The notes under the pieces: model-generated
Databases searched by the model: none
What the model was told of the DNA's origin: nothing
What the model saw: only the letters and a program-made list of their open reading frames with translations
Shown here: piece by piece, positions 11,768-30,154 of the stretch
Layout of the letters: the number at the start of each line of letters is the position of its first letter
Position numbering within the stretch: the first letter of the stretch is position 1
Position numbers and translations under genes: made by a program
Assembly: GCA_964603985.1 (NCBI GenBank)
Contig: CAZRXG010000024.1
Coordinates: 460-64,459, forward strand
From: an uncultured Anaerolineae bacterium
Lineage (GTDB): Bacteria > Chloroflexota > Anaerolineae > Aggregatilineales > UBA3940
DNA: 64,000 nucleotides
Direction of reading: 5' to 3'

Positions 11768-12973
11768 ATGACAGACGAGTCACTCAGCATCTACACGCTG
11801 GCCGTCCTGGCCGGCTGCGAAGCGCCAACCGGCAGCGGCGCGCCTGCCGTGCCACCGCTCACGCCCTCCGTTGGCTTCATTCATCCCACCATGGAGGCAA
11901 CCGACCAGGCGCTGGCCGACGATACAGCAGGCTACATCTACGCCCGGCACGGCGGCCCCACCCAGGCCGCCTTTGAGGAGACCGTCGCCGGCCTGGAGGG
12001 CGCGCAGGCGGCAGTCGGCTTCAGCAGCGGTATGGCTGCCCTGCACGCCGCGATCCTGGCCCTCGTGCCGCCCGGCGGTGTGATCGTCGCCGCCGAGCAA
12101 CTCTACGGGGCGACGCGCTCCCTGCTTGAATGGCTCGCGGCCAGCATGCGTGTAACCGTCCACTACGCCGATTTCCTCGACCTCGAAGCCACCCGCCAGG
12201 TCATTACCCAGTCCGGCCCGACGGTTGTCATCTGCGAGGTGCTGACCAATCCCCTGGTCCGCGTCGTGCGGGTCGACCTCATTGCCGAGATGGCGCAAAT
12301 CGCCGAGGCCGCCCTGATCGTCGATAACACCTTCTCCACGCCCTTCCTGCTGCGCCCGCTTGAGCTGGGGGCCGATCTGGTTGTACACAGCACGACCAAG
12401 TTTCTCAACGGGCACGGCGACGTGCTGGGCGGCGTCGTCGTCGGGCGCACCGACCTGGTGCAGGTGGCGCGCAGCCACCGTAAGCTCCTGGGCGCGATGC
12501 CCGGCGCATTCGAGTCCTGGCTGGCGCTGCGCGGGCTGCGCACGCTGGCCGTCCGCATGAGTCACGCCTGCTTCAGTGCGCGCCAGATCGCCGCCTGGCT
12601 GGATGGGCAGCCGGGAGTCGGGCGGGTGTACTATCCCGGGCTTGAGCCGGACGAGCAGGCTCACGCCGCCGCCCGCGTACTTTTCCGCCGCAACTACTTT
12701 GGGGCTGTGATGGCCTTCCAGATCGAGGGGCTGGATCGAGAGGGCGCTTTCGCCTTCGTCGAGCGGCTCAAGATCATCCGGCCTGTCACCAGCCTGGGCG
12801 ATGTCAACAGCCTGATCTCTCACCCGGCCACATCCTCGCACCGCAGTCTGTCGCCGGAGGAGCGCGCCGCACAGGGCATCACCGAGGGGACGCTGCGCCT
12901 CTCGGTTGGCATCGAAGATCCCACCGACCTGATGGCCGATCTCAACCAGGCGCTCGGCATAACCCGCGATTGA
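11768..12973 (+). CDS. Cys/Met-metabolism PLP enzyme (cystathionine gamma-synthase / O-acylhomoserine sulfhydrylase / Met gamma-lyase family)
   Basis: PLP-lysine motif HSTTKFLNGHGD and C-terminal LRLSVGIED. ATG at 11768 preferred over the track start at 11711. Confidence 0.85.
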   Translation: MTDESLSIYTLAVLAGCEAPTGSGAPAVPPLTPSVGFIHPTMEATDQALADDTAGYIYARHGGPTQAAFEETVAGLEGAQAAVGFSSGMAALHAAILALVPPGGVIVAAEQLYGATRSLLEWLAASMRVTVHYADFLDLEATRQVITQSGPTVVICEVLTNPLVRVVRVDLIAEMAQIAEAALIVDNTFSTPFLLRPLELGADLVVHSTTKFLNGHGDVLGGVVVGRTDLVQVARSHRKLLGAMPGAFESWLALRGLRTLAVRMSHACFSARQIAAWLDGQPGVGRVYYPGLEPDEQAHAAARVLFRRNYFGAVMAFQIEGLDREGAFAFVERLKIIRPVTSLGDVNSLISHPATSSHRSLSPEERAAQGITEGTLRLSVGIEDPTDLMADLNQALGITRD

Positions 12974-18879: not shown

Positions 18880-19021
18880 AATGCGCGCCTCTCATGCAAC
18901 GGCCATTTGGCTTGTGCATCAAATCGACTAAACTCATACCGATTCCCTGGGAGCCGCGACGCCCGGTCGCGGTGGCCCATGAATACAACATCGGAGCTAA
19001 TCATTGCAGGAGGAGACAGAC

Positions 19022-19948
19022 ATGCGTATCGCGGTAATGGGGACCGGCGGCGTCGGCGGATACTTCGGCGGCCTGCTGGCACGGGCGGGCGAGGATGTGA
19101 CGTTCATCGCGCGCGGTGAGCACCTGCGGGCCATCCAGACGGACGGGCTGCGCGTCGAGAGCGTGCACGGTGATTTCACGGTCAGGCCCGCGCAGGCAAC
19201 CGACGACCCATCGACGGTCGGGCCGGTCGACCTGGTGCTGTTCGCAACCAAGACCTACCAGATCGAGGAGGCAACCGAGGCAATGCGCCCCTTGATCGGG
19301 CCTGAGACGGTCGTCTTGCCGCTACAAAACGGCGTCGACGCCTCTGAACGCGTGGCGGCCATCCTGGGACCTGAGCACGTCCTGGGGGGCGTGTGTTATA
19401 TCGTGAGCGCCATCGCCGGGCCGGGCGTAATTCAGCAGAGGAGTGAATTTCGGAGCATCGCCCTGGGTGAACTGGATGGGCAGGTCACACCCAGGGTAGA
19501 GGCCATCACCGCCACGCTCAAGCGAACCGGCGCCCCCGTCGAGCTGTCAACCGCGATCAACAAGGTGCGCTGGACAAAGTTCCTTTTCATAGCCTCGTAC
19601 AGTGGCATGGGAGCGGTGACGCGTGCTCTGGCCGGTGAACTGATGGCCTGCGCCGAGTCGCGCCAGATGTTAGAGCGTTCCATGCGCGAGATCGAGGCGC
19701 TGGCTGCGGCCAGTGGCGTCCGGCTAGGCGACGATGCCGTGCCGGAGGCGATGGCCTTCTGCGATAACCTTGCCCCGGACGCAACCGCCTCGATGCAGCG
19801 CGACATCATGGAGGGCAGACCCTCGGAACTGGAGGCGCAAAACGGATTCGTGATGCGAAAAGGAGCGGAGCTGGGGGTACCGGTGCCGGTGAACACCTTT
19901 ATCTACAGCGTGCTGCTTCCCCAGGAGCACCGTGCACGGGCAGGCTGA
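19022..19948 (+). CDS. panE: 2-dehydropantoate 2-reductase (ApbA/PanE family)
   Basis: MRIAVMGTGGVGGYFGG Rossmann N-terminus and the family C-terminal domain (SMQRDIMEGRPSELE). ATG at 19022 is preceded by AGGAGGAG. Confidence 0.8.
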   Translation: MRIAVMGTGGVGGYFGGLLARAGEDVTFIARGEHLRAIQTDGLRVESVHGDFTVRPAQATDDPSTVGPVDLVLFATKTYQIEEATEAMRPLIGPETVVLPLQNGVDASERVAAILGPEHVLGGVCYIVSAIAGPGVIQQRSEFRSIALGELDGQVTPRVEAITATLKRTGAPVELSTAINKVRWTKFLFIASYSGMGAVTRALAGELMACAESRQMLERSMREIEALAAASGVRLGDDAVPEAMAFCDNLAPDATASMQRDIMEGRPSELEAQNGFVMRKGAELGVPVPVNTFIYSVLLPQEHRARAG

Positions 19949-19965: not shown

Positions 19966-20292
19966 TTAGCCTACCAGATCCGTGAGATCCTTTTCCCGCA
20001 GCATGCGGCGTTTCCAGCTCTCCAGCAGGGGAACGACGAAGGGCAGCAGGCGCATCGAGTAGTAGGGTGGTAAAATCGGAATGCCGAGCAGGTCGCCGAA
20101 GCTGATCAATACGAAGAGGTGCTCCCGGTCGGCCCGTTCGCGGCGCAGGGTCATATACATCTCGTAGTAGGTCACACCGAAGATGAACCCCCGCAGCCAG
20201 GAGACAAAGTGCTCCCACGCGCGCCGCAGGTGGGAAATGAGCGTTGTGCCGTCAGATTGCTCAGCCTGGTCGGTCATGATATCTACTACCAC
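19966..20292 (-). CDS. small conserved protein P1 (paralog of 23601-23912), unknown family
   Basis: 108 aa. Its C-terminal 52 residues are about 75% identical to P2 (EHLFVLISFGDLLGIPILPPYYSMRLLPFVVPLLESWKRRMLREKDLTD). Confidence 0.6.
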   Translation of the reverse strand: MVVDIMTDQAEQSDGTTLISHLRRAWEHFVSWLRGFIFGVTYYEMYMTLRRERADREHLFVLISFGDLLGIPILPPYYSMRLLPFVVPLLESWKRRMLREKDLTDLVG

Positions 20293-20310
20293 TCCTTTGG
20301 AGAGAACCCG

Positions 20311-20976
20311 ATGACACCCAGTTCACAAAGAATCCTGATTGGGCTGATCGTTTTCCTGGCCGTATGGTACGTGGTCGCCTCATTCTTCAACCGGCGGCGC
20401 GGCATCACCGTCTTTCACTGGCTGCGAAATGGCCTGGATCGCCTGGGCGGCGAAACGGCTGCCCGCTGGATCGGCTCGTCCGGATCGGGCGCTCGAATCC
20501 AGGTGCGCAAGGCCGAGCCGCCCTTCCGCGATCTCGAGATTATCTACCTGCTGGCCTCCCGCGAACTGCTGCCCCTGTTTCTCGCCGACCTGCTGCGCGG
20601 CAAACGCGACCGGGTGATCGTCAGAGCCCGGCTACGATCTGCCCCTCAGGCCGAGCTTGAGGTCGCCCCACCCAGAAGCAAGGCGGCCCGCCAGATGCAA
20701 GCCGAGAAGGATCGGCCCTGGAGCATCGAAGGCGGGCCCCGAGATCTGCTGGTGGGTGCCCGTGGCCGGGATGCCGACACACTGCGCGCGGCACTCACTC
20801 CTCTACTTGAGAAGTATGAGACGCACGTCCAGAGCATCTCGTGGAGCAGAGAAGCTCCCCACCTGATCCTCATCCTCTCGCTGGCCGGGCTTTACGAGAG
20901 GGGAGGGAATGCCGCTGAGTTGTACGACGATCTGGCGGCAGTTGCCACTGCAGCAGGTCAGGGCAGCCGATCCTAG
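20311..20976 (+). CDS. hypothetical N-terminally membrane-anchored protein
   Basis: ATG at 20311 with a GGAGAG SD. TM helix ILIGLIVFLAVWYVVASFF. No recognisable domain. The upstream part of the track ORF (from 20119) is antisense to P1. Confidence 0.5.
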   Translation: MTPSSQRILIGLIVFLAVWYVVASFFNRRRGITVFHWLRNGLDRLGGETAARWIGSSGSGARIQVRKAEPPFRDLEIIYLLASRELLPLFLADLLRGKRDRVIVRARLRSAPQAELEVAPPRSKAARQMQAEKDRPWSIEGGPRDLLVGARGRDADTLRAALTPLLEKYETHVQSISWSREAPHLILILSLAGLYERGGNAAELYDDLAAVATAAGQGSRS

Positions 20977-21461
20977 TGGCACCACCACTCCGGTACCACG
21001 CGCAGCACTTCCTCGAAGCCTTCGGGGGGACAGCGCCCGCTTAGTTCCAACCGGATGCGGCGGTCGCTCTGCTCGCAGTTATACGTTACCTCAACAAACG
21101 AGATCGTCTTGGGCCGGAACAGCCCACGCCGCCGCTGCCAGCGACGCACCTGCGCGGGATGGCCGTGCACCTCAAGCGTCTCTCCGCCCCCAGGGGGCTT
21201 GAGCTTGCGTCGTCGTTGTGGGCTGCTCTCCAGCAGCAGTTCCACAGCCCATCCTTGCTCCCGGTGGTAGAGTACGTACCACGCTCTCCCACAGGCGACC
21301 AGTTTGCGGTTGCAGCGCTCGTGCGTGGCCGCGATCTCCGGGCGACTGAGGCCAGGAGCAAGGTCCCAGCTTTCAGGCAGCCGCAACGTGATGAAGTGCG
21401 CCTGCCCATAGAGCACGTTTCTGATGGCGATATCGTGCCGTACCAGCTTGTCGTCGCACAT
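20973..21461 (-). CDS. hypothetical Cys-containing protein, last gene of the ArsA-like operon
   Basis: 162 aa. Starts 15 nt downstream of the ArsA-like gene stop. No recognisable motif. Confidence 0.5.
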   Translation of the reverse strand: MCDDKLVRHDIAIRNVLYGQAHFITLRLPESWDLAPGLSRPEIAATHERCNRKLVACGRAWYVLYHREQGWAVELLLESSPQRRRKLKPPGGGETLEVHGHPAQVRRWQRRRGLFRPKTISFVEVTYNCEQSDRRIRLELSGRCPPEGFEEVLRVVPEWWCH

Positions 21462-21475
21462 CCTTGCGTCTCACA

Positions 21476-22480
21476 TCACCCGGCCACTTCTGGTTGGCCG
21501 AACATCGCGTCGGCCACGCGTTTCAGCATGGGTACGCCGCGTACCTCGGTCTCGTAGAGCGGCACAATCGCCCGCACCAGCGCGCCAAAGGTCTCATCGA
21601 TCTCTTGCATGTACTCCTGCTGCATGGCGACGCGGTTGCGCACGAACTCCGGCGCATCGTCGCCAACGACCTCTTCCTCGATCTTCATGTTGACCACCAC
21701 CCCGCCGATCGGGATGCCGAACTCGGTGAACCAGTCGATGAAGCGGCGGATCACGGCGATGGGTAGTGCCTCCGGCAGGGTCACGAAGAAGAAAGCGGTC
21801 ATGGCGTCGTCGGTCAGGAGATCCTTGGCGTGGCCCATCCGGTCCTGGAAGGAGAGCAGGTAATCCATCAGCGGGTCTTTCTCCTGCTTCTTCTTGCTGT
21901 AAGAAAGACTGAGCCGCATCGCCTGGGCCTCTTCACGACTCTTCAGCATCTTGTTGACCCACAGCGAGTAGACGGATGACATCCCCAGCAGGCGCCGCGC
22001 GTTGGCGGTGGGGGCCGTGTCGAAGACGTACACCTCGTATTCGTCCTCAAACATCAGGTCGATCATGTTCTCAAACATGGCCGACTCTTCGAAGGCCGGG
22101 TTCATCGTGGCGCTCTCGACGAACTGCTCGGCCTGGGTGCGGATCTCCGCATATCTCAGGAACCAGTCGATCTTCTCGCGGATTTCGACCTTGCTCTTCT
22201 CGATGGTGTCTTTGGTGTCGATCTCGTAAGCCCACAGGTTATCGACACCCTCGATTGCAACGTGTCTGCCGAACACATTCTGGTCGAGCAGACCACTCAG
22301 GCTGTGGACCGGGTTGGTGCTGGCCAGCAGCGTACGGCGCCCGCGCTGGGCGAAACCCAGTGCAGCCGCGCCCGCCAGCACGGTCTTGCCAACGCCTCCC
22401 TTGCCACCGAAAAAGGTGTATTTGAGGCCGGGATGAGCCTCCACAAAATCGGTTACCGAATCGGTGATTTGCAGCGTCAT
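21476..22480 (-). CDS. ArsA/Get3-family P-loop ATPase (single domain), copy 1
   Basis: Deviant Walker A FFGGKGGVGKT. Switch II reads VFDTAPTANARRLL, where the family consensus is DTAPTGHT. Confidence 0.9.
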   Translation of the reverse strand: MTLQITDSVTDFVEAHPGLKYTFFGGKGGVGKTVLAGAAALGFAQRGRRTLLASTNPVHSLSGLLDQNVFGRHVAIEGVDNLWAYEIDTKDTIEKSKVEIREKIDWFLRYAEIRTQAEQFVESATMNPAFEESAMFENMIDLMFEDEYEVYVFDTAPTANARRLLGMSSVYSLWVNKMLKSREEAQAMRLSLSYSKKKQEKDPLMDYLLSFQDRMGHAKDLLTDDAMTAFFFVTLPEALPIAVIRRFIDWFTEFGIPIGGVVVNMKIEEEVVGDDAPEFVRNRVAMQQEYMQEIDETFGALVRAIVPLYETEVRGVPMLKRVADAMFGQPEVAG

Positions 22481-22558
22481 GGCTGTCCTCTCTTTAACGT
22501 CGTGTCAGATGGGTGGCGAGGTCACGCCAGGGTGTCACGGCGGCCCCGCTTATACCTG

Positions 22559-23536
22559 CTAGGTGCCGAACATGGCCTCCGCCATCCGTTCGATCATCTC
22601 CATGCCGGTGATGTCACGCTCAAATTCCGGAACGCGTGCCAGCACCTGGTCGCCGAACAGGTTGTCGATCTTCTCAAGGTATTCGCCCTGCATCTTATAG
22701 CGGCTGCGCAGGTAATCCGGCACCCCCGCCTCTGACATGATCAGGTCGGGTAGCACGCGGTTGACGATGTAACCTGAGAGTGGGACATCAAACTTCAAAA
22801 AGAGCTCGGCTGCATTCTGGGTGTCGATCAGGATCATCTCCTCTGGCACCAGTACAAAGAAGAAGGCGGTCTTGACCTTGTCGGTCAGGATGCTGGCCGA
22901 GGTGGAGATGCGATCCTTGATGTATTGGAGCTCGTTCAGGATCAGATCCTCATTGAGCTGCCTGCTGCGCTGGATCCGCGCCGCCATCTGCTCGTATTCG
23001 CGCATCTCTTCGCGCAGCCCGGTGATGCGGCCGATCCACTCGTCGTACACCGAGGCCATGCTCAGGTAGTAGAGCGCGTGGCCGAGCGGGACCAGATCGT
23101 AGATGTAGTAATCAAATCCCCCGGCCACGACGATGTCAACCACCTGGTCAAAGATGGCGCTCTCCTCCATGGCCGGTTCGGCGGCAGCCGCCTGGATGTA
23201 GCTCTCGATCTCGTCGGGAATCTTGTCCAGGTGGTACATGTCAAAGATCTTTTGGCGGATCTCCTCCTGGTACTCCTTGATCCGCTGGTCGGCGTCGATC
23301 TCCTGGGCATACAGGTTTGGGGCGATCTCAACCACGCCCTTGCCGAAGATGTCGCGCTGGAAGATGTCGGACAGCGATGCCTGTGGGTCCACCGAGAAGA
23401 CAAGTACACGGTGTCCCTGGGAAGCCAGATAATGCGCGGTGGCAGCGCTGAAGGTTGTTTTACCGAGGCCCCCCTTGCCGCCAAACATGATGTAGCGGCG
23501 TTCGGGGTGCTCCTCGAAGATTTTCGCCAGTGACAT
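22559..23536 (-). CDS. ArsA/Get3-family P-loop ATPase (single domain), copy 2, degenerate switch II
   Basis: Walker A MFGGKGGLGKT. Switch II is replaced by IYDLVPLGHALYYL. Collinear with copy 1 overall. Confidence 0.88.
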   Translation of the reverse strand: MSLAKIFEEHPERRYIMFGGKGGLGKTTFSAATAHYLASQGHRVLVFSVDPQASLSDIFQRDIFGKGVVEIAPNLYAQEIDADQRIKEYQEEIRQKIFDMYHLDKIPDEIESYIQAAAAEPAMEESAIFDQVVDIVVAGGFDYYIYDLVPLGHALYYLSMASVYDEWIGRITGLREEMREYEQMAARIQRSRQLNEDLILNELQYIKDRISTSASILTDKVKTAFFFVLVPEEMILIDTQNAAELFLKFDVPLSGYIVNRVLPDLIMSEAGVPDYLRSRYKMQGEYLEKIDNLFGDQVLARVPEFERDITGMEMIERMAEAMFGT

Positions 23537-23600
23537 TTACGATTTCTCCTCACACATTCGATGGGGGAGCAGATTTCCCTTGATGGTAAAAAAGCCGGTT

Positions 23601-23912
23601 CTAGGCCAGGGCGTCGGTCAGGTCCTTCTCGCGCAGCATGCGGCGCTTCCAGGTGCTGATCTGCGGGACAACGTAGGGAAGTAAGCGCAGGGAGTAGTAA
23701 GGAGGCAAGATGGGGACGCCCAGCAGGTCGCCCATGGTGATCAGAATAAACAGGTGCTCCATGCTGCCGCGCGTCTTGAGCGCCTGGCGAGTCATCTCGT
23801 GGGCGGCCATGCCGTAGATGTAGTCGCTGAACGCGCGCTTGGCCTTTTGGAAGAAACTTTCTTTCGCTTCTTCTTCGGGCTGTGTGGCCTCGGGATTTAC
23901 GTTCTCGCTCAT
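23601..23912 (-). CDS. small conserved protein P2 (paralog of 19966-20292), unknown family
   Basis: 103 aa, first gene of the ArsA-like operon. C-terminal block EHLFILITMGDLLGVPILPPYYSLRLLPYVVPQISTWKRRMLREKDLTD. Confidence 0.65.
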   Translation of the reverse strand: MSENVNPEATQPEEEAKESFFQKAKRAFSDYIYGMAAHEMTRQALKTRGSMEHLFILITMGDLLGVPILPPYYSLRLLPYVVPQISTWKRRMLREKDLTDALA

Positions 23913-24395
23913 GAGTATTCCTCTCTTGTCGTATTGGTTTTGACACCACTATCTTTGCACTTTTTGTTTTTTGCGTCTGCTCGGAGGGAGTCAGTCTCTC
24001 CGGCGCACGCGCGAAATTGTAAAATCTGCAAAGACAGAGGACACTTTCCCTGCTCAGGCAGGGAAACTTCGCTCCACTGCGACACGTCTCCCTTGAGGGG
24101 CCAATGTCGCATCGCGAGCGTTTATCGTCTCTAGTTGCCCGGTGATCGCGTTGTGAGTTTCATGTGTCGGTGGGCTTGTTTCGCTTCTCTAACTGTGGAA
24201 CACGTCCTGAACATTCGATCTGAGCGTGGCAGTCGCTGCATGTGTATGGCCCGGTGAATATGTGGCTCGTAATAAGGAACCCAACCGTCCGTTTCTCGCC
24301 TAAGCCAGGATACTAACGCAAAGCATCTGGCGCGGCAAGTTGCCGAATAATTACGCGATATATGACAGCCGGGCGCGATCAGGCAGGAGTATCTA

Positions 24396-24764
24396 TCACA
24401 CCACCTGCTCCAGAGCCTGCCCGACGGCTCCTACGAATTCACTGAGGGACATGTCCAACGGGTGGCACTGCCCGCCGATCACCAGGCATGGGAACTCACG
24501 CAGCCGGTGGCGGGCGCAAAACACAAGCCCCCTGGGTGTCCAGAGGTTCAGTATGCGTATCGCTACCCGGCCCCCAAACTCGCGCTCCAGCGCGCGCCGC
24601 AGTATTCGCACTCGCTGCCAGAAGGTGAACGGTGGTCCCGCATCGGTCAGGTCGCGCAGACCGGCTTCCTCAAACACCTCACTCACGTACCGGAAGCCGC
24701 GGGGTGCCTGGAGGTCCAGATCATCGCCCCGCACCACAATGGTAACGACCAGTTCTATGCCCAC
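24396..24764 (-). CDS. glutaredoxin-like fold protein lacking CxxC (paralog of 24778-25188)
   Basis: 122 aa. The block AIRILNLWTPRGL...REFPCLVIGGQ aligns with VIRITDAQSLRGL...RRYPTFIVGGR of the neighbouring gene. Confidence 0.45.
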   Translation of the reverse strand: MGIELVVTIVVRGDDLDLQAPRGFRYVSEVFEEAGLRDLTDAGPPFTFWQRVRILRRALEREFGGRVAIRILNLWTPRGLVFCARHRLREFPCLVIGGQCHPLDMSLSEFVGAVGQALEQVV

Positions 24765-24777
24765 CTGCCTGCCCCTG

Positions 24778-25188
24778 TCAGCCCTCCGCTGCGGAAAGAT
24801 GTTGCCGGATCATCCCGTTGAGGTGCTCCCGGTCCCAGCCGTGATACGTCTCCCTGCCGCCGACGATGAAAGTCGGGTACCTGCGAACTCCTCTGGTCAG
24901 CGACTTCCACAGCCCGCGCAGGGACTGGGCATCGGTGATGCGGATCACGAGCTGCCCCGGAAAGGTCGCAGCCAGATCCAGCACCCACCCGGACACGCGC
25001 TCCCAGTCGTGGGTGAACTCTTCGGGGTAAGATTGCAGGTTCTCCTGGTGGACCCGGCCCCCGACACCTGCGCGGTCAACGAAGACCTGGCAGTGTCGGC
25101 AGTGGATCATGCTCCCCGTGACGTGCGTCACGACCTCGATGTCAAGCGGCTGATGCTCCATTGTCTTCTCCGGCTCTGTATGCCGCAT
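24778..25188 (-). CDS. glutaredoxin/thioredoxin-like protein with CRHC motif
   Basis: 136 aa with CxxC (IHCRHCQVF) and a Grx-like C-terminus (RRYPTFIVGGRETYHGWDREHL). The start may instead be the internal Met at MEHQPLD. Confidence 0.5.
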   Translation of the reverse strand: MRHTEPEKTMEHQPLDIEVVTHVTGSMIHCRHCQVFVDRAGVGGRVHQENLQSYPEEFTHDWERVSGWVLDLAATFPGQLVIRITDAQSLRGLWKSLTRGVRRYPTFIVGGRETYHGWDREHLNGMIRQHLSAAEG

Positions 25189-27800: not shown

Positions 27801-28820
27801 ATGGACTCCTCACCCCAGGTTCGGCTGGCACTGCCGAGTAAGGGCCACCTGGAAGACGAAACGTTCCGCTTCTTGAGAGACTGCGGTCTGCGAGTTAACA
27901 AGACCAACCCCCGCCAGTACAGCGCGCGCATCCCGGCCCTGCCGGAGGTGCTGGTGCTGTTCCAGCGCGCACGCGACATTGCTAAAAGCGTTGCCGCCGG
28001 GGATGTCGACCTGGGCATTACCGGCTACGATACGGTCTACGAGTCGCTGGGCGACGCATTCGACGAGGTTGTGCTGGTCCACGAGTCGCTGGGCTACGGG
28101 GAATGCGACCTGGTCGTGGCCGTACCCGACGAGTGGGACACGGTCGATGACCTGGCCGGACTGGCCGCCAGGGCAGAAAGCGAGAGAGGGCTTCGTGCCG
28201 CCACCAAGCACACCCATTCGGCGCGCCGTTTCTTCGATGAGCACGGAGTCGAAGGAATACGCATCGTCAGTGCGGACGGCGCGCTGGAGGCCGCCCCGAC
28301 GGTTGGCTATGCGGACTTCATCGTTGACATCACCACCACCGGCACGACGCTGCGGGATAACCATCTGAAGCCGCTGCCGGACGGCACCATTGTCGAGGCG
28401 CAGGCGGTGCTGATCGGCAACCGGGAGTCGCTTGAGCGCCGCCAGGCGGTGCTGTCCGCCACGTGCCACATGCTGGAATTCATCGAGGCCCACCTCCAGG
28501 CACGCGATAAATACCTGGTGTTTGCCAACATGCGGGGCGGGTCGGCGGAGGAAGTTGCCGGGCGCATGTTCACCCAGACCGAACTGGGCGGGCTGCAAGG
28601 CCCCACGATCTCGCCGATCATCTCCCCCTCACAGGAAGGCGGCTGGTGGGCGGTAAACATCGTGGTTTCGTCTGAGAAGCTGTACCGTGCCATCCAGCAG
28701 TTGCGCGCCATTGGCGGGAGCGGCGTGGTTGCGACCCCGGCCACCTACATTTTCGAGGAGCGCCCCGCCCGCTACCAGCGTCTGCTGGCCGACCTGGGCA
28801 AAGAGGAGATAAACGCATGA
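27801..28820 (+). CDS. hisG: ATP phosphoribosyltransferase, long form with C-terminal regulatory domain
   Basis: RLALPSKGHLEDETFRFL N-terminus, GITGYD, and a C-terminal HisG_C-like region. No hisZ is needed for a long-form enzyme. Confidence 0.92.
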   Translation: MDSSPQVRLALPSKGHLEDETFRFLRDCGLRVNKTNPRQYSARIPALPEVLVLFQRARDIAKSVAAGDVDLGITGYDTVYESLGDAFDEVVLVHESLGYGECDLVVAVPDEWDTVDDLAGLAARAESERGLRAATKHTHSARRFFDEHGVEGIRIVSADGALEAAPTVGYADFIVDITTTGTTLRDNHLKPLPDGTIVEAQAVLIGNRESLERRQAVLSATCHMLEFIEAHLQARDKYLVFANMRGGSAEEVAGRMFTQTELGGLQGPTISPIISPSQEGGWWAVNIVVSSEKLYRAIQQLRAIGGSGVVATPATYIFEERPARYQRLLADLGKEEINA

Positions 28821-30154
28821 GCGGTCTGCTGCGTATCTACGAACTCGAGGAAGCCCGGCAGGGCATCCTGCGGCGCGTTCCGCCCGACGAGCTTGAGGTG
28901 ACCGAAAGCGTCAGGAAAAGCATCGAGGCTATCTTCGGCGAGCCGCTGACGCCGGAGCAGGCGGTTCGACGGGTGATCGGCGACGTGCGGGCAGGCGGCG
29001 ACAACGCACTGCGCGCCTGGATGGAGCGCATCGACCGGGTGGCACTTGACGCGCTGTCCGCTTCGCCGGAGGAGATCACGGCGGGGGTTGAGGCCACACC
29101 GCCGGAGGTCATCGACGCGCTGAGACTGTCCGCACAGCGGATCGAGCGCTTCTACCGGCAGCAGCCGCTCACCTCATGGCTGGATGTGGGCGAAGAAGGC
29201 GTCCTGGGCCAGGTCATCCTGCCGGTTGACCGGGTGGGCGTTTACGTGCCGGGCGGCACCGCCCCGCTTCCATCCTCGCTGCTGATGAGCGCGATCCCCG
29301 CCCAGGTGGCCGGGGTTAAGGGGATCATCGCCTGCACGCCGCCGGGGCGCGATGGCTCGTTGCCGCCCGTGATTCTGGCGGCAGCGCACGTCGCCGGGGT
29401 CGAGCGGGTGTACAAGCTCGGCGGGGCGCAGGCCATCGCAGCGATGGCCTACGGCACCGAGAGCGTCCCCCGCGTGGACAAGATCGTCGGGCCGGGCAAC
29501 CTGTTCGTGACGCTCGCCAAGCGGCAGGTGTACGGCGCGGTGGGCATCGAGGGGCTGCTGGGGCCGACCGAGACGCTGATCATCGCCGACGAGCACGCCA
29601 ACCCGGCCTACGTCGCCGCCGACCTGCTGGCGCAGGCCGAGCACGACGTGCTGGCCCAGGCGATCCTCGTCACGCCCAGCCGCGACCTGGCAGGGGCAGT
29701 CGCCGCCGAGGTCGAGGCGCAGGCCGCCGACCTGAGCCGCAGGGCGATCTTCCGGGAGTCGCTGGCACACCGGGGCGGCGTGATCATCGTGCCCGACCTT
29801 GAGACCGCCTTCGATCTGGCCGACGAGTATGCCGCCGAACACCTGCAGCTCTCGGTCGAAGAGCCGTTCAACTGGCTGGGCAAGGTCAGGCATGCCGGTG
29901 CGATCTTCCTCGGTGAACACTCATTTGAGGTGCTGGGCGACTACGTGGCCGGGCCGAGCCACAGCCTGCCCACCGGCGGCACGGCCCGCTTTGCGTCAGG
30001 GCTGAACGTGCTGGACTTTGTCAAAGTGACGGGTGTGATCGGGTTGCAGCCGCAAACCACCGCCCGACTGAGCGCCCCGGCTGCCACGCTGGCCCGTGCC
30101 GAGGAATTGACGGCCCACGCCGCCGCCGCCGATGCGAGGAGTGAGGCCCAATGA
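28817..30154 (+). CDS. hisD: histidinol dehydrogenase
   Basis: 445 aa with the family blocks ([38 protein letters not shown]). ATGA overlap with hisG. Confidence 0.95.

Follow-up and report, generated by a model that had tools for sequence, protein, structure and literature searches.

Two diverged Get3/ArsA-type ATPases and two DUF7990 proteins in a conserved gene cluster with CstA

Genes of the cluster

What do two tandem ArsA/Get3-like ATPases do beside two copies of a small conserved protein? All six open reading frames behind the original prediction were found in the window (the whole stretch of 64,000 nucleotides that was analysed) with unchanged positions and strands (Table 1), but the operon does not start at P2 as had been assumed. 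Here cstA and two thioredoxin-like genes, T and T', precede P2 on the same strand, with a 483-nt gap and a good ribosome-binding site between cstA-T-T' and P2-A-B. The lack of an arsenic context was confirmed, with no arsR/B/C/D or acr3 gene in the neighbourhood and no ars gene within about 10 kb of the cluster. On a near-identical contig (L083) there are His-operon genes, CstA, PanE, FGGY, DAO, an FAD oxidase and GntR. For comparison we used 80 loci in GTDB relatives, and as these are the best matches to P2, the conservation figures taken from them are biased upward. GlpD was present in 1 and FGGY in none of the 80 loci; the neighbouring glycerol genes, for which a relation had been left undecided, are thus unrelated to the cluster.

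Table 1. Genes of the cstA cluster in the window and the basis of each assignment
Product	Position	Strand	Basis or remark
CstA-family permease, 600 aa	25292..27094	-	PF02554 CstA, E 6.9e-115; first gene of the conserved cluster
T, thioredoxin-fold protein, 136 aa, CxxC (HCRHCQ)	24778..25188	-	Predicted fold and Foldseek
T', degenerate T paralogue, 122 aa, without CxxC	24396..24764	-	BLASTP against T
P2, X2-type DUF7990 protein, 103 aa	23601..23912	-	Homologues carry PF25952; NF041419, E 1.2e-8
ATPase A, 325 aa, Get3/ArsA fold, SVDPQAS	22559..23536	-	PF02374, E 3e-69
ATPase B, 334 aa, Get3/ArsA fold, STNPVHS	21476..22480	-	PF02374, E 1e-64
162-aa protein, accessory in some lineages	20973..21461	-	Orthologues only; no Pfam or NCBIfam match
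Y, single-pass membrane protein, 221 aa, TM residues 8-26	20311..20976	+	Kyte-Doolittle
P1, X1-type DUF7990 protein, 108 aa as given	19966..20292	-	NF041419, E 9.5e-9

The permease shares 26% identity with E. coli CstA (E 2e-49). For T, the AlphaFold2 model (pLDDT 78.6, pTM 0.71) has a beta-alpha-beta-alpha-beta-beta-alpha topology for which every top Foldseek match in the PDB is a thioredoxin (E from 2e-4), and the profile search also finds thioredoxins (E 0.003). By tblastn T is located after CstA in 31 of the 80 loci, and in three of its orthologues a TGA lies in frame at the redox motif, with a hairpin after it. T' matches T across the C-terminal half (BLASTP E 5e-6) and has orthologues in 8 loci, all from the close lineage of the window. 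Y reaches its Kyte-Doolittle maximum (19-residue) of 2.65 in the membrane segment. Its orthologues (37/80 loci) lie on the opposite strand downstream, or upstream of cstA, and conserve WY..G...NRRRG, W[IL]GS, RE and PH; family and PDB searches with Y gave no significant match, and it probably corresponds to CstY in Castillo and Saier. Orthologues of the 162-aa protein (11 of the 80 GTDB loci, 24-65% identity) are all inside the cluster, and in the Armatimonadota and Desulfobacterales loci the gene comes after T.

The ATPase pair and the DUF7990 proteins

Both ATPases have the ArsA/Get3 fold that was proposed for them, as seen from their PF02374 matches. They share 35% identity (E 2e-57), both score above the TIGR00345 cut-off (223 and 209 bits vs 135), and the best PDB match of each is the archaeal Get3 3UG6 (E 2.5e-58 for A and 2e-53 for B), with 3ZQ6 also among the closest archaeal Get3 structures. 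The translations of A and B contain no Cys, and therefore neither has the Get3 CxxC, as had been noted, or the metalloid-binding Cys of ArsA. The ATPase motifs quoted earlier are correct. A retains the switch I Asp (SVDPQAS) and has a non-canonical switch II, YDLVPLGHALYYL, while B has Asn for Asp in switch I (STNPVHS) and in its switch II, FDTAPTANARRLL, DTAPT is present and GH is lost. These motifs are invariant in 77 sequences of A and 68 of B, so that the substitutions are selected and not decaying, and the non-canonical motifs of the two subunits are complementary. The switch I Asp is required for catalysis and Mg binding, as known from the Get3 D57N and ArsA D45 mutants. A heterodimer with one degenerate site had been predicted. 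The pair is indeed obligate, A and B being both present in 66 of 67 loci, but a single degenerate site is too simple a description, since the DTAPT subunit B carries Asn and the "degenerate" A keeps the Asp.

P1 and P2 are related as had been supposed, being paralogues with 49/106 identities (BLASTP E 5e-35). Their shared block EHLF...DLTD does contain 39 identities, though over 49 positions on recounting instead of 52. The block was earlier considered unplaceable, but homologues carry Pfam PF25952, which is DUF7990. Also, both proteins match NCBIfam NF041419 (cory-CC-star) weakly, at E about 1e-8 and below the cut-off; this name derives from a terminal Cys-Cys in relatives. P2 has 6060 homologues at E<=1e-3. 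For P1 the ATG at 20277 is the probable start, giving 103 aa, because its 97%-identical homologue (P0272, which carries PF25952) and the L083 gene call both have 103 aa, and in that case its spacing to the 221-aa gene is 33 nt and not 18 nt as first reported. The invariant positions of these proteins (collectively X) include G61, D62, G65, P67, P70, P71, Y73, R76, P79, P83 and W88, and the most conserved part is the hydrophobic segment itself, with the pattern GDxxGxPxLPPYYxxRLLP, a conservation that, judged from the alignment, is unlike that of a simple membrane anchor. P2 alone gave no confident fold in AlphaFold2 (pLDDT 61), as expected of a subunit that folds only on its partner. DUF7990 probably corresponds to CstX in Castillo and Saier, on the basis of size, position, hydropathy and paralogy and not of sequence, since no accessions for CstX are given in that paper.

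Gene order, co-variation and a possible module around CstA

The order CstA, T, X1, X2, A, B, plus Y, recurs in GTDB relatives from at least 6 phyla (Chloroflexota, Methylomirabilota, Desulfobacterota, Armatimonadota, Spirochaetota and Actinomycetota). ATPase A is immediately 3' of the P2 orthologue (X2) in 73 of 73 loci, and this, together with the A-B pairing given above, supports the original view of the small proteins as functionally tied to the ATPase pair, with which P-like genes co-occur in these other genomes. CstA is no more than 8 kb from the P2 orthologue in 57 of the 67 loci with enough flank, and its order and orientation are the same in 85% of loci across phyla. In the other 10 of 67, mostly Methylomirabilota, no CstA was found within 8 kb, so that the X-A-B core can exist apart from cstA. 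Of the 48 loci with enough flank for it, 41 have a second DUF7990 copy, usually immediately upstream of X2, and it is from this site that the X1 of the window (P1) is displaced downstream. Median identity over the 80 P2-selected loci, from several phyla, is 78% for X2, 74 and 72% for the two ATPases and 53% for CstA, so that P2 is the best conserved of the cluster's proteins. Partial correlations of the distance matrices are 0.36-0.39 for X1-A and 0.39-0.44 for X2-B as against 0.06-0.13 for the cross pairs, a pattern seen in 98% of bootstrap resamples and opposite to gene adjacency; for X2-CstA the value is 0.27. The flanks of a distant DUF7990 clade contain no ATPase and no CstA (0/13, plus 0/12 where only the downstream flank was available), and KpsF-like and NikR-like genes are its neighbours.

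We consider it about an even chance that the ATPases and small proteins are part of a conserved membrane-associated module around CstA, and are just as evenly divided on its composition and working, namely CstA, T, X1/X2, an asymmetric A/B heterodimer and Y, with X coupling the ATPase to CstA. Each X would bind one ATPase protomer (P1-type with A, P2-type with B) through the Gly/Pro/Tyr-rich hydrophobic hairpin and a basic WKRRMLRE helix, and such binding would keep the ATPase dimer at the membrane beside CstA. ATP binding would lead to dimer closure, and hydrolysis would probably take place at the subunit A site only, where the switch I Asp remains, and subunit B (Asn) would sense the nucleotide without hydrolysing it. 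The nucleotide cycle could then act through the X proteins on the gating, energising or assembly of CstA, in analogy to ArsA on ArsB. ArsA, which energises ArsB, is a pseudo-dimer whose two halves are not equivalent.

It is unlikely, though worth weighing, that P1 and P2 are clients of Get3-type targeting, with the hairpin shielded in a closed A/B groove until ATP hydrolysis releases it to the membrane, where they would become CstA or Y subunits. TM domains of clients normally vary, whereas the segment here is the most conserved part of X, and one Asp, one Arg and five Pro in it are invariant. Unless the segment forms a re-entrant hairpin, the highly charged tail, KRRMLREKDLTD, would have to pass through the membrane; it would be unusual for two such small clients to have a two-ATPase machine to themselves, the Get3 CxxC is missing, and the groove segments of A and B have 5 and 9 Met vs 13-14 in archaeal Get3. 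Yet the closest structures are archaeal Get3, and A and B match these in the hydrophobicity of their helical subdomains (0.43-0.49 vs 0.44-0.49), which leaves room for a client-binding groove. Also, the P1/P2 segment lies near the C-terminus (no more than about 30-50 residues from it) and is a borderline TM helix (Kyte-Doolittle 1.6), and Castillo and Saier scored CstX with one TMS (PMC2963123).

We regard as improbable a stand-alone stress or chaperone module, in which X-A-B works without CstA, either as a protective ATPase pair like BagAB or as a redox-linked holdase, and the adjacency to cstA reflects starvation co-regulation only. The 10 loci lacking a nearby cstA, the 483-nt gap with its ribosome-binding site and the precedent of BagAB, a pair of Get3-like ATPases for which a stress phenotype is known (PMC10597346), are consistent with this, but the conserved order and orientation of cstA, the X2-CstA correlation, the CstA/ArsA-homologue co-evolution of Castillo and Saier (PMC2963123) and the poor scores against the BagA/BagB models (34-48 bits vs cut-offs of 400 and 521) argue against it. 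Metal or redox trafficking, whereby a SIMIBI-class ATPase pair, the CxxC/UxxC protein T and X deliver or sense a metal or thiol-reactive ligand, is very doubtful. The CxxC of T with its TGA in three loci, the His-rich C-terminal tail of some X1-type relatives (DHEHHLHGL and similar), the Cys-Cys of cory-CC-star relatives and the orphan DUF7990 genes upstream of NikR-like regulators (8/13 loci, plus 7/12 for the downstream flank only) point to it; against this, P1, P2, A and B of the window have neither Cys nor a His-rich tail, many loci have no T or none that was detected, and the cluster has no conserved metal transporter. The cluster is not an arsenic pump, and an ArsA split over two genes is scarcely credible, since the PF02374 and weak ArsA-model matches are annotation-level only, TIGR04291 gives 84 and 107 bits vs a cut-off of 650, the metalloid-binding triad is absent along with all Cys, ars genes are missing from the neighbourhood, and Castillo and Saier report none in any cstA cluster (PMC2963123).

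Comparison with known systems

E. coli CstA-YbdD and BtsT-YjiX (DUF466) resemble the cluster in that a small conserved protein is encoded beside a CstA-family permease, and YbdD ends in Cys-Cys as do the cory-CC-star relatives of DUF7990. Homology of DUF7990 to YbdD was undetectable by hhalign (probability 0.15%), YbdD is without a hydrophobic segment (Kyte-Doolittle 0.44), unlike P1 and P2, and these systems have no ATPase partner. To our knowledge BagAB (Rv3679/Rv3680) has no linkage to CstA or DUF7990. Its ATPases are adjacent, interacting and Get3-like with no arsenic role (PMC10597346), and the parallel drawn originally holds for the fold and no further, since the similarity to A/B is P-loop-level only and glycerol genes are not conserved neighbours of this cluster type.

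Get3/TRC40 (3UG6, 3ZQ6, 2WOJ) are the best structural relatives, with the same single-domain size and a helical subdomain of similar hydrophobicity. They are homodimers with a CxxC zinc clasp, whereas A/B is a predicted heterodimer of diverged paralogues that lacks the clasp, has Asn for the catalytic Asp in B and an altered switch II in both subunits, and for which no Get1/2-like receptor was recognised. ArsAB (E. coli R773) shares the ATPase fold, the two non-equivalent nucleotide-binding halves and, if our proposal holds, the docking of a soluble ATPase on a secondary transporter. ArsA is however fused (about 580 aa) and not encoded by two genes, it has metalloid-binding Cys/His that A/B do not have, its equivalog cut-off is far above the A/B scores, and its partner is ArsB, while here it would be CstA, unrelated to ArsB, plus small adaptor proteins.

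The closest systems are the cstA-cstX-(cstY)-arsA-homologue clusters described computationally by Castillo and Saier (2010, Int J Microbiol 2010:187373; PMC2963123), who proposed CstX as the coupler of the ATPase to CstA. There CstX has about 90 aa and one hydrophobic segment, sometimes as two paralogues; the ArsA homologues, one or two, are adjacent and single-domain (about 330 aa), with 25% identity within the pair in Symbiobacterium and 31% in Pyrobaculum; CstY has about 210 aa and a single TMS; ars genes including arsR are absent, and CstX evolves slower than the ATPase (PMC2963123). CstA, the small protein, the ATPase pair, the single-TMS protein, the lack of ars genes and an X slower than the ATPase are thus common to both. 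CstY was archaeal only in that work, whereas the Y-type gene is present here in bacterial loci, and the statement that CstX never occurs without CstA (PMC2963123) fails at the neighbourhood level in Methylomirabilota and in the orphan DUF7990 clade. Therefore the cluster type, the co-evolution and the coupling idea were already described (PMC2963123), while the complementary switch motifs, the X1-A/X2-B pairing and the CxxC protein T with its TGA, of which that paper makes no mention, are new here, as is the ATPase-less DUF7990 clade.

Gene content and conserved order of the cluster

All ORFs of the original prediction were recovered in the window's ORF list at the same coordinates (see table); the start of the small protein P1 is probably the ATG at 20277, giving 103 aa, as judged from its homologue P0272 and from the gene call on L083, a contig near-identical to the window. 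The small protein P2 had been taken as the start of the operon, which is wrong, as genes for a CstA-family permease, a CxxC thioredoxin-like protein (T) and a degenerate paralogue of T (T′) precede it on the minus strand. A non-coding gap of 483 nt lies between cstA-T-T′ and the genes for P2, the two ATPases (A and B) and a 162-aa protein, and P2 has a strong ribosome-binding site (GAGAGGA). Scans with Rfam and for promoters and terminators over 19-28 kb of the window were uninformative, and in the gap neither an Rfam family nor a convincing promoter or terminator was recognised; the cluster in this lineage may consist of two transcription units. It may be added that a PanE/ApbA-family gene adjoins P1 and has homologues of 47-75% identity next to the cluster in 9 of 80 related loci, an arrangement that is probably lineage synteny and not function, and that a histidine biosynthesis operon runs divergently from cstA, for which L083 additionally carries hisC/B/H/A/F-type genes.

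Features of the cluster and its surroundings in the window
Feature	Coordinates	Strand	Assignment
PanE/ApbA-family gene	19004-19948	+	2-dehydropantoate reductase
P1	19966-20292	-	X1-type DUF7990 protein
Y, 221 aa	20311-20976	+	TM segment at residues 8-26 (Kyte-Doolittle)
162-aa protein	20973-21461	-	accessory member, seen in 11 loci
ATPase B, 334 aa	21476-22480	-	PF02374, E 1e-64; TIGR00345, 209 bits
ATPase A, 325 aa	22559-23536	-	PF02374, E 3e-69; TIGR00345, 223 bits
P2	23601-23912	-	X2-type DUF7990 protein
Gap	23913-24395		non-coding
T′, 122 aa	24396-24764	-	weak paralogue of T
T, 136 aa	24778-25188	-	thioredoxin fold predicted; conserved CxxC
CstA-family permease, 600 aa	25292-27094	-	PF02554, E 7e-115; 26% identity to E. 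coli CstA
Histidine operon (hisG, hisD)	27801-30154 and beyond	+	histidine biosynthesis

When one genome of each GTDB species was scanned, 583 confirmed relatives were obtained, and the best 80 of these 583 loci were analysed by tblastn with the window proteins. They come from Anaerolineae and other Chloroflexota, Methylomirabilota (NC10), Desulfobacterota, Armatimonadota, Spirochaetota and Actinomycetota, and the recurring order is CstA, T, X1 (P1-type), X2 (P2-type), ATPase A and ATPase B, with homologues of the single-pass membrane protein Y placed downstream on the opposite strand or upstream of cstA. The proposed co-occurrence of P-like genes with a pair of ArsA-like ATPases was borne out among these best-matching loci, ATPase A directly following X2 in each of the 73 loci whose flank extends to 1.1 kb or more and both ATPases being present in 66 of 67; a second DUF7990 copy was found in 41 of 48. 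CstA lies within 8 kb in 57 of 67 loci, and the ten with no cstA nearby are mostly from Methylomirabilota. In the window's lineage X1 has been shifted to a position downstream of Y, with T′ standing where X1 is usually found, while the 162-aa gene is an accessory member seen in 11 loci. A tie to the GlpD/FGGY genes, earlier left as a possibility, is rejected, since GlpD occurs in 1 and FGGY in 0 of the 80 related loci. Median identities to the window proteins were 78% for X2, 74% for A, 72% for B, 53% for CstA and 39% each for T and Y, values that are biased upward because the loci were picked by similarity to X2.

The DUF7990 proteins, T and Y

P1 and P2 had been described as unplaceable, which does not hold, as they belong to PF25952 (DUF7990) and also match the cory-CC-star profile (NCBIfam NF041419) at E about 1e-8. 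PF25952 is assigned to every homologue listed for P2 and P1, among them P0003 with 99% identity to P2 and P0272 with 97% identity to P1, and the L083 genes at both positions carry the same label; a local Pfam copy, which lacks the DUF7990 model, gave no match for P2 and only weak unrelated matches for P1. Their predicted kinship stands, as they are paralogues (BLASTP E 5e-35, 46% identity), with the correction that the shared EHLF...DLTD block has 39/49 identities and not 39/52. The cory-CC-star scores are 35.2 and 34.8 bits over profile positions 14-71 of 80, against an equivalog cut-off of 80, and P1 ends in LVG and P2 in ALA with no terminal Cys-Cys; judged by these profile scores and termini, P1 and P2 are homologous to cory-CC-star proteins yet not members of that family. 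At E<=1e-3 the family comprises 6060 sequences with P2 as query and 2338 with P1, in 442 clusters at the 50% level, and the P2-type proteins are typically 92 aa long and very conserved. Protein-cluster look-ups placed distant members also in Planctomycetaceae, Deltaproteobacteria, Spirochaetota and Armatimonadota, with no archaeal genome and no genome of Castillo and Saier among them.

In 131 P1/P2-type sequences, G34, E52, L54, F55, L57, G61, D62, G65, P67, L69, P70, P71, Y73, R76, L77, L78, P79, P83, W88, R94, E95 and D97 are invariant, and these residues fall in the hydrophobic segment and the helix after it. This "hydrophobic" stretch, whose Kyte-Doolittle maximum is 1.6, includes one Asp, one Arg and five Pro that never vary, which disfavours a plain membrane anchor and fits a specific interface. 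AlphaFold2 with 131 sequences modelled P2 as a helix (19-63), a loop (64-70, GVPILPP) and further helices (71-102) at low confidence (pLDDT 61, pTM 0.28), as would be expected if P2 were a subunit that needs a partner in order to fold. PDB searches with the CstA sequence and with the DUF7990 profile gave no match and no solved structure, and P2 had no match among plasmid records. It may also be noted that many X1-type proteins (examples are among P0141, P0154, P0160, P0162, P0172, P0176-P0178, P0222, P0237 and others) carry a conserved acidic, His-rich C-terminal tail (DHEHHLHGL, DEHDYHLHGL, EEYDLHGV) and that other subtypes end in DQEIG or LIEGID, the window's P1 and P2 having no such tails. 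Double-DUF7990 fusions (P0001, P0002, P0004) were rejected as Rosetta-stone evidence, being singletons of which P0002 has a first-domain tail frameshifted relative to its relatives, and so was a 690-aa double ArsA in L001, a singleton with a frame change in ATPase B at about 12105-12133; for both kinds of apparent fusion (L001:10001-12622 and the singleton proteins) an artefact of assembly or gene calling is probable. The idea of modelling a tandem X in place of the heterodimer was dropped, all single-domain sequences aligning to its second half only. P0165 and P0271, in which T is fused to X1 (two members, on contigs of up to 24 kb), may be real fusions.

For the more distant DUF7990 proteins, alignment A5 was too divergent to seed a metagenome scan, and a scan seeded with a P0194-like clade (40-55% identical to P1/P2) returned 80 loci. 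No ArsA-like ATPase or CstA was found in the flanks of this clade, either in the 13 loci with both flanks or in the 12 with only the downstream flank, so that DUF7990 is not always encoded beside ATPases. A divergent KpsF/SIS-domain-like gene flanks it in 11 of the 13, and a NikR-like ribbon-helix-helix regulator lies downstream in 8 of the 13 and in 7 of the 12 downstream-only loci. The loci concerned are L085-L137 (e.g. L121:5923-6742, L112:6004-6742 and L126:5908-6764), and in L112 CbiM/CbiN-like genes come next.

The protein T was modelled by AlphaFold2 with 34 sequences as a thioredoxin fold (pLDDT 78.6, pTM 0.71), and the top Foldseek matches of this model in the PDB were all thioredoxins. 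In three T orthologues an in-frame TGA falls right in the redox motif (L075:7199-7603, +; L053:10988-11356, -; L058:11177-11701, -), L075 reading Q-TGA-T-H-C-E where L046 reads Q-C-K-H-C-E, and the two Desulfobacterales loci among the three reading F-C-N-TGA; a hairpin (fold z-scores -1.7 to -2.4) follows 11-23 nt after the TGA. T may thus be a selenoprotein in some lineages. YbdD, the small CstA partner of E. coli K-12 (PF04328; ybdD at L082:4183-4380), ends in Arg-Cys-Cys, and the name of the cory-CC-star relatives of DUF7990 suggests a Cys-Cys end for them as well. Homology of DUF7990 to YbdD/YjiX (DUF466, PF04328) was rejected, hhalign of alignment A1 against E. coli YbdD giving a probability of 0.15%. 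As YbdD, cory-CC-star and T are three unrelated small proteins with Cys, or possibly Sec, beside CstA-type systems or DUF7990 relatives, a thiol-based function may be indicated. The Y family gave only non-significant matches against Pfam and the PDB; that to CCDC47, a subunit of the eukaryotic PAT chaperone complex (E 0.35, 2 of 23 members in alignment A4), is not significant and is recorded only because a role in membrane-protein biogenesis would fit.

Asymmetry of the ATPase pair

ATPases A and B share 35% identity and are full-length members of the Get3/ArsA fold family, exceeding the TIGR00345 (TRC40/GET3/ArsA) cut-off of 135 and scoring 234 and 219 bits with PF02374 (cut-off 24.3). Their nearest PDB structures are archaeal Get3, namely 3UG6 (E 2.5e-58 for A, 2e-53 for B) and also 3ZQ6. 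Both have a deviant Walker A with the signature Lys (GGKGGLGKTT for A, GGKGGVGKTV for B), which does not vary among the orthologues. Canonical Get3/ArsA has STDPAHS as switch I and DTAPTGH as switch II; on alignment to the archaeal structures A has SVDPQAS and YDLVPLGHALYYL, and B has STNPVHS and FDTAPTANARRLL. Within switch II the core DLVPLGH of A keeps D, P, G and H, and DTAPTAN in B has lost the GH, so that a different half is kept in each. Within switch I the Asp is kept in A, and B has Asn at this catalytic/Mg-ligand position (aligned to STDPAHS of 3UG6), which is that of Get3 D57 and ArsA D45. The original prediction of a heterodimer with one degenerate site oversimplifies these motifs: the ATPase regarded as intact (B) has the Asn and no Gly-His, and the one regarded as degenerate (A) keeps the Asp. 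As the switch residues are invariant across 77 A-type and 68 B-type sequences, the asymmetry is selected and not a result of decay. The most economical reading of these motifs is that A would provide one hydrolytic site and B one site that binds nucleotide and does not hydrolyse it. The translations contain no Cys in either ATPase, in agreement with the earlier statement that the Get3 CxxC is absent, and therefore both this motif and the ArsA metalloid site are missing; where 3UG6 has its CDFC zinc clasp, the alignment shows PDYLRS for A and PEFVRN for B.

Matrices of pairwise distances, computed over 47-56 loci for X1, X2, A, B and CstA, were correlated in every pair of proteins, in line with phylogeny. 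The partial correlations were 0.57 for A-B, 0.36-0.39 for X1-A, 0.39-0.44 for X2-B and 0.27 for X2-CstA, and low (0.06-0.13) for X1-B, X2-A and X1-X2. The X1-A/X2-B pattern was kept in 98% of bootstrap resamples of loci and runs contrary to gene adjacency, X2 adjoining A, which makes a simple linkage artefact unlikely. This suggests, but does not prove, that P1 pairs one-to-one with ATPase A and P2 with ATPase B.

Possible working of the module and known systems

Get3/ArsA-fold ATPases are widespread in bacteria and archaea and to our knowledge have hardly any established role beyond arsenic resistance and eukaryote-style tail-anchor targeting. CstA-family permeases serve pyruvate and peptide uptake in starvation, and we know of no established regulator for them. 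With moderate confidence we propose, as the best-supported reading, that P1 and P2 would be CstX-type partner subunits of an asymmetric Get3-fold A/B heterodimer, which would work at the membrane with CstA by an ArsA/ArsB-like logic. A more novel reading, which we offer only tentatively and consider rather doubtful, is an uncharacterised bacterial machine in which the asymmetric ATPase, with one catalytic and one sensing site, would dock via the hairpin adaptors X1 and X2 on a secondary transporter, and would either make CstA ATP-gated or ATP-driven or insert and assemble its small subunits, under redox control by the thioredoxin-like protein, possibly selenocysteine-containing in some lineages. 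If true, this docking machine would give non-arsenic ArsA/Get3 homologues their first mechanistic role in bacteria.

The main rival, which is plausible, is that the X hairpins would be delivered into the membrane in the manner of Get3. X has its hydrophobic segment near the C-terminus and, in a sequence-only comparison, the helical subdomains of A and B equal those of archaeal Get3 in hydrophobicity (fraction 0.43-0.49) but are poorer in Met (5 and 9 in A and B, against 13-14). A stress module that is independent of CstA is less likely. A role in metal or redox trafficking is also less likely, although it would agree with the CxxC/UxxC motif in T, with the His-rich tails that some relatives of X1 carry and with the NikR adjacency. 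An arsenic pump is effectively excluded, as detailed in the following comparison.

ArsA proper is a fused two-domain protein of about 580 aa with a metalloid-binding Cys triad, encoded in an ars operon, whereas A and B are single-domain proteins with no Cys and no ars genes. The scores are far below the cut-offs, both for ArsA proper (TIGR04291, 84 and 107 bits against 650) and for BagA/BagB (NF053622/NF053621, 43-48 and 34-36 bits against 400 and 521, over the P-loop region only), and so A and B are neither arsenic pumps nor BagAB orthologues. The earlier remark on the lack of an arsenic-gene context was upheld on the near-identical contig, where ars genes were not found in the surroundings. 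The proposed asymmetry of sites would resemble the non-equivalent halves of ArsA. A many-phyla cluster with a small protein at about 80% identity offers a compact, testable system for ATPase-transporter communication, to which the present analysis adds a probable hydrolysing subunit, a probable X/ATPase pairing and a putative redox-active partner in T. The system is real, strongly conserved and experimentally uncharacterised, and is worth biochemical study.

The closest precedent is that of Castillo and Saier (2010; PMC2963123), the only report found in a literature search on DUF7990, cory-CC-star, CstX and CstA with Get3, which also gave no experimental follow-up. They described 26 bacterial and archaeal operons that join cstA and cstX to a single-domain ArsA homologue of about 330 aa, or to two adjacent ones, with no ars genes; cstX is a small one-TMS gene of about 90 aa, sometimes duplicated, and cstY a one-TMS gene of about 210 aa in five archaea. 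Co-evolution was shown, with CstX evolving more slowly than the ATPase, and CstX was put forward as the linker through which the ArsA homologue would energise CstA. The window cluster, with its CstA permease, small hydrophobic protein, ArsA homologues of about 330 aa and no ars or arsR genes, agrees with this description, and we hold with high confidence that it is an instance of the CstA-CstX-ArsA-homologue type. P1 and P2 fit CstX by size, position, duplication and hydropathy, and Y fits CstY, both being matched by description and not by sequence. Since the association dates from a 2010 publication and Pfam already lists the small protein as a DUF, this is a known but uncharacterised system and not a new kind.
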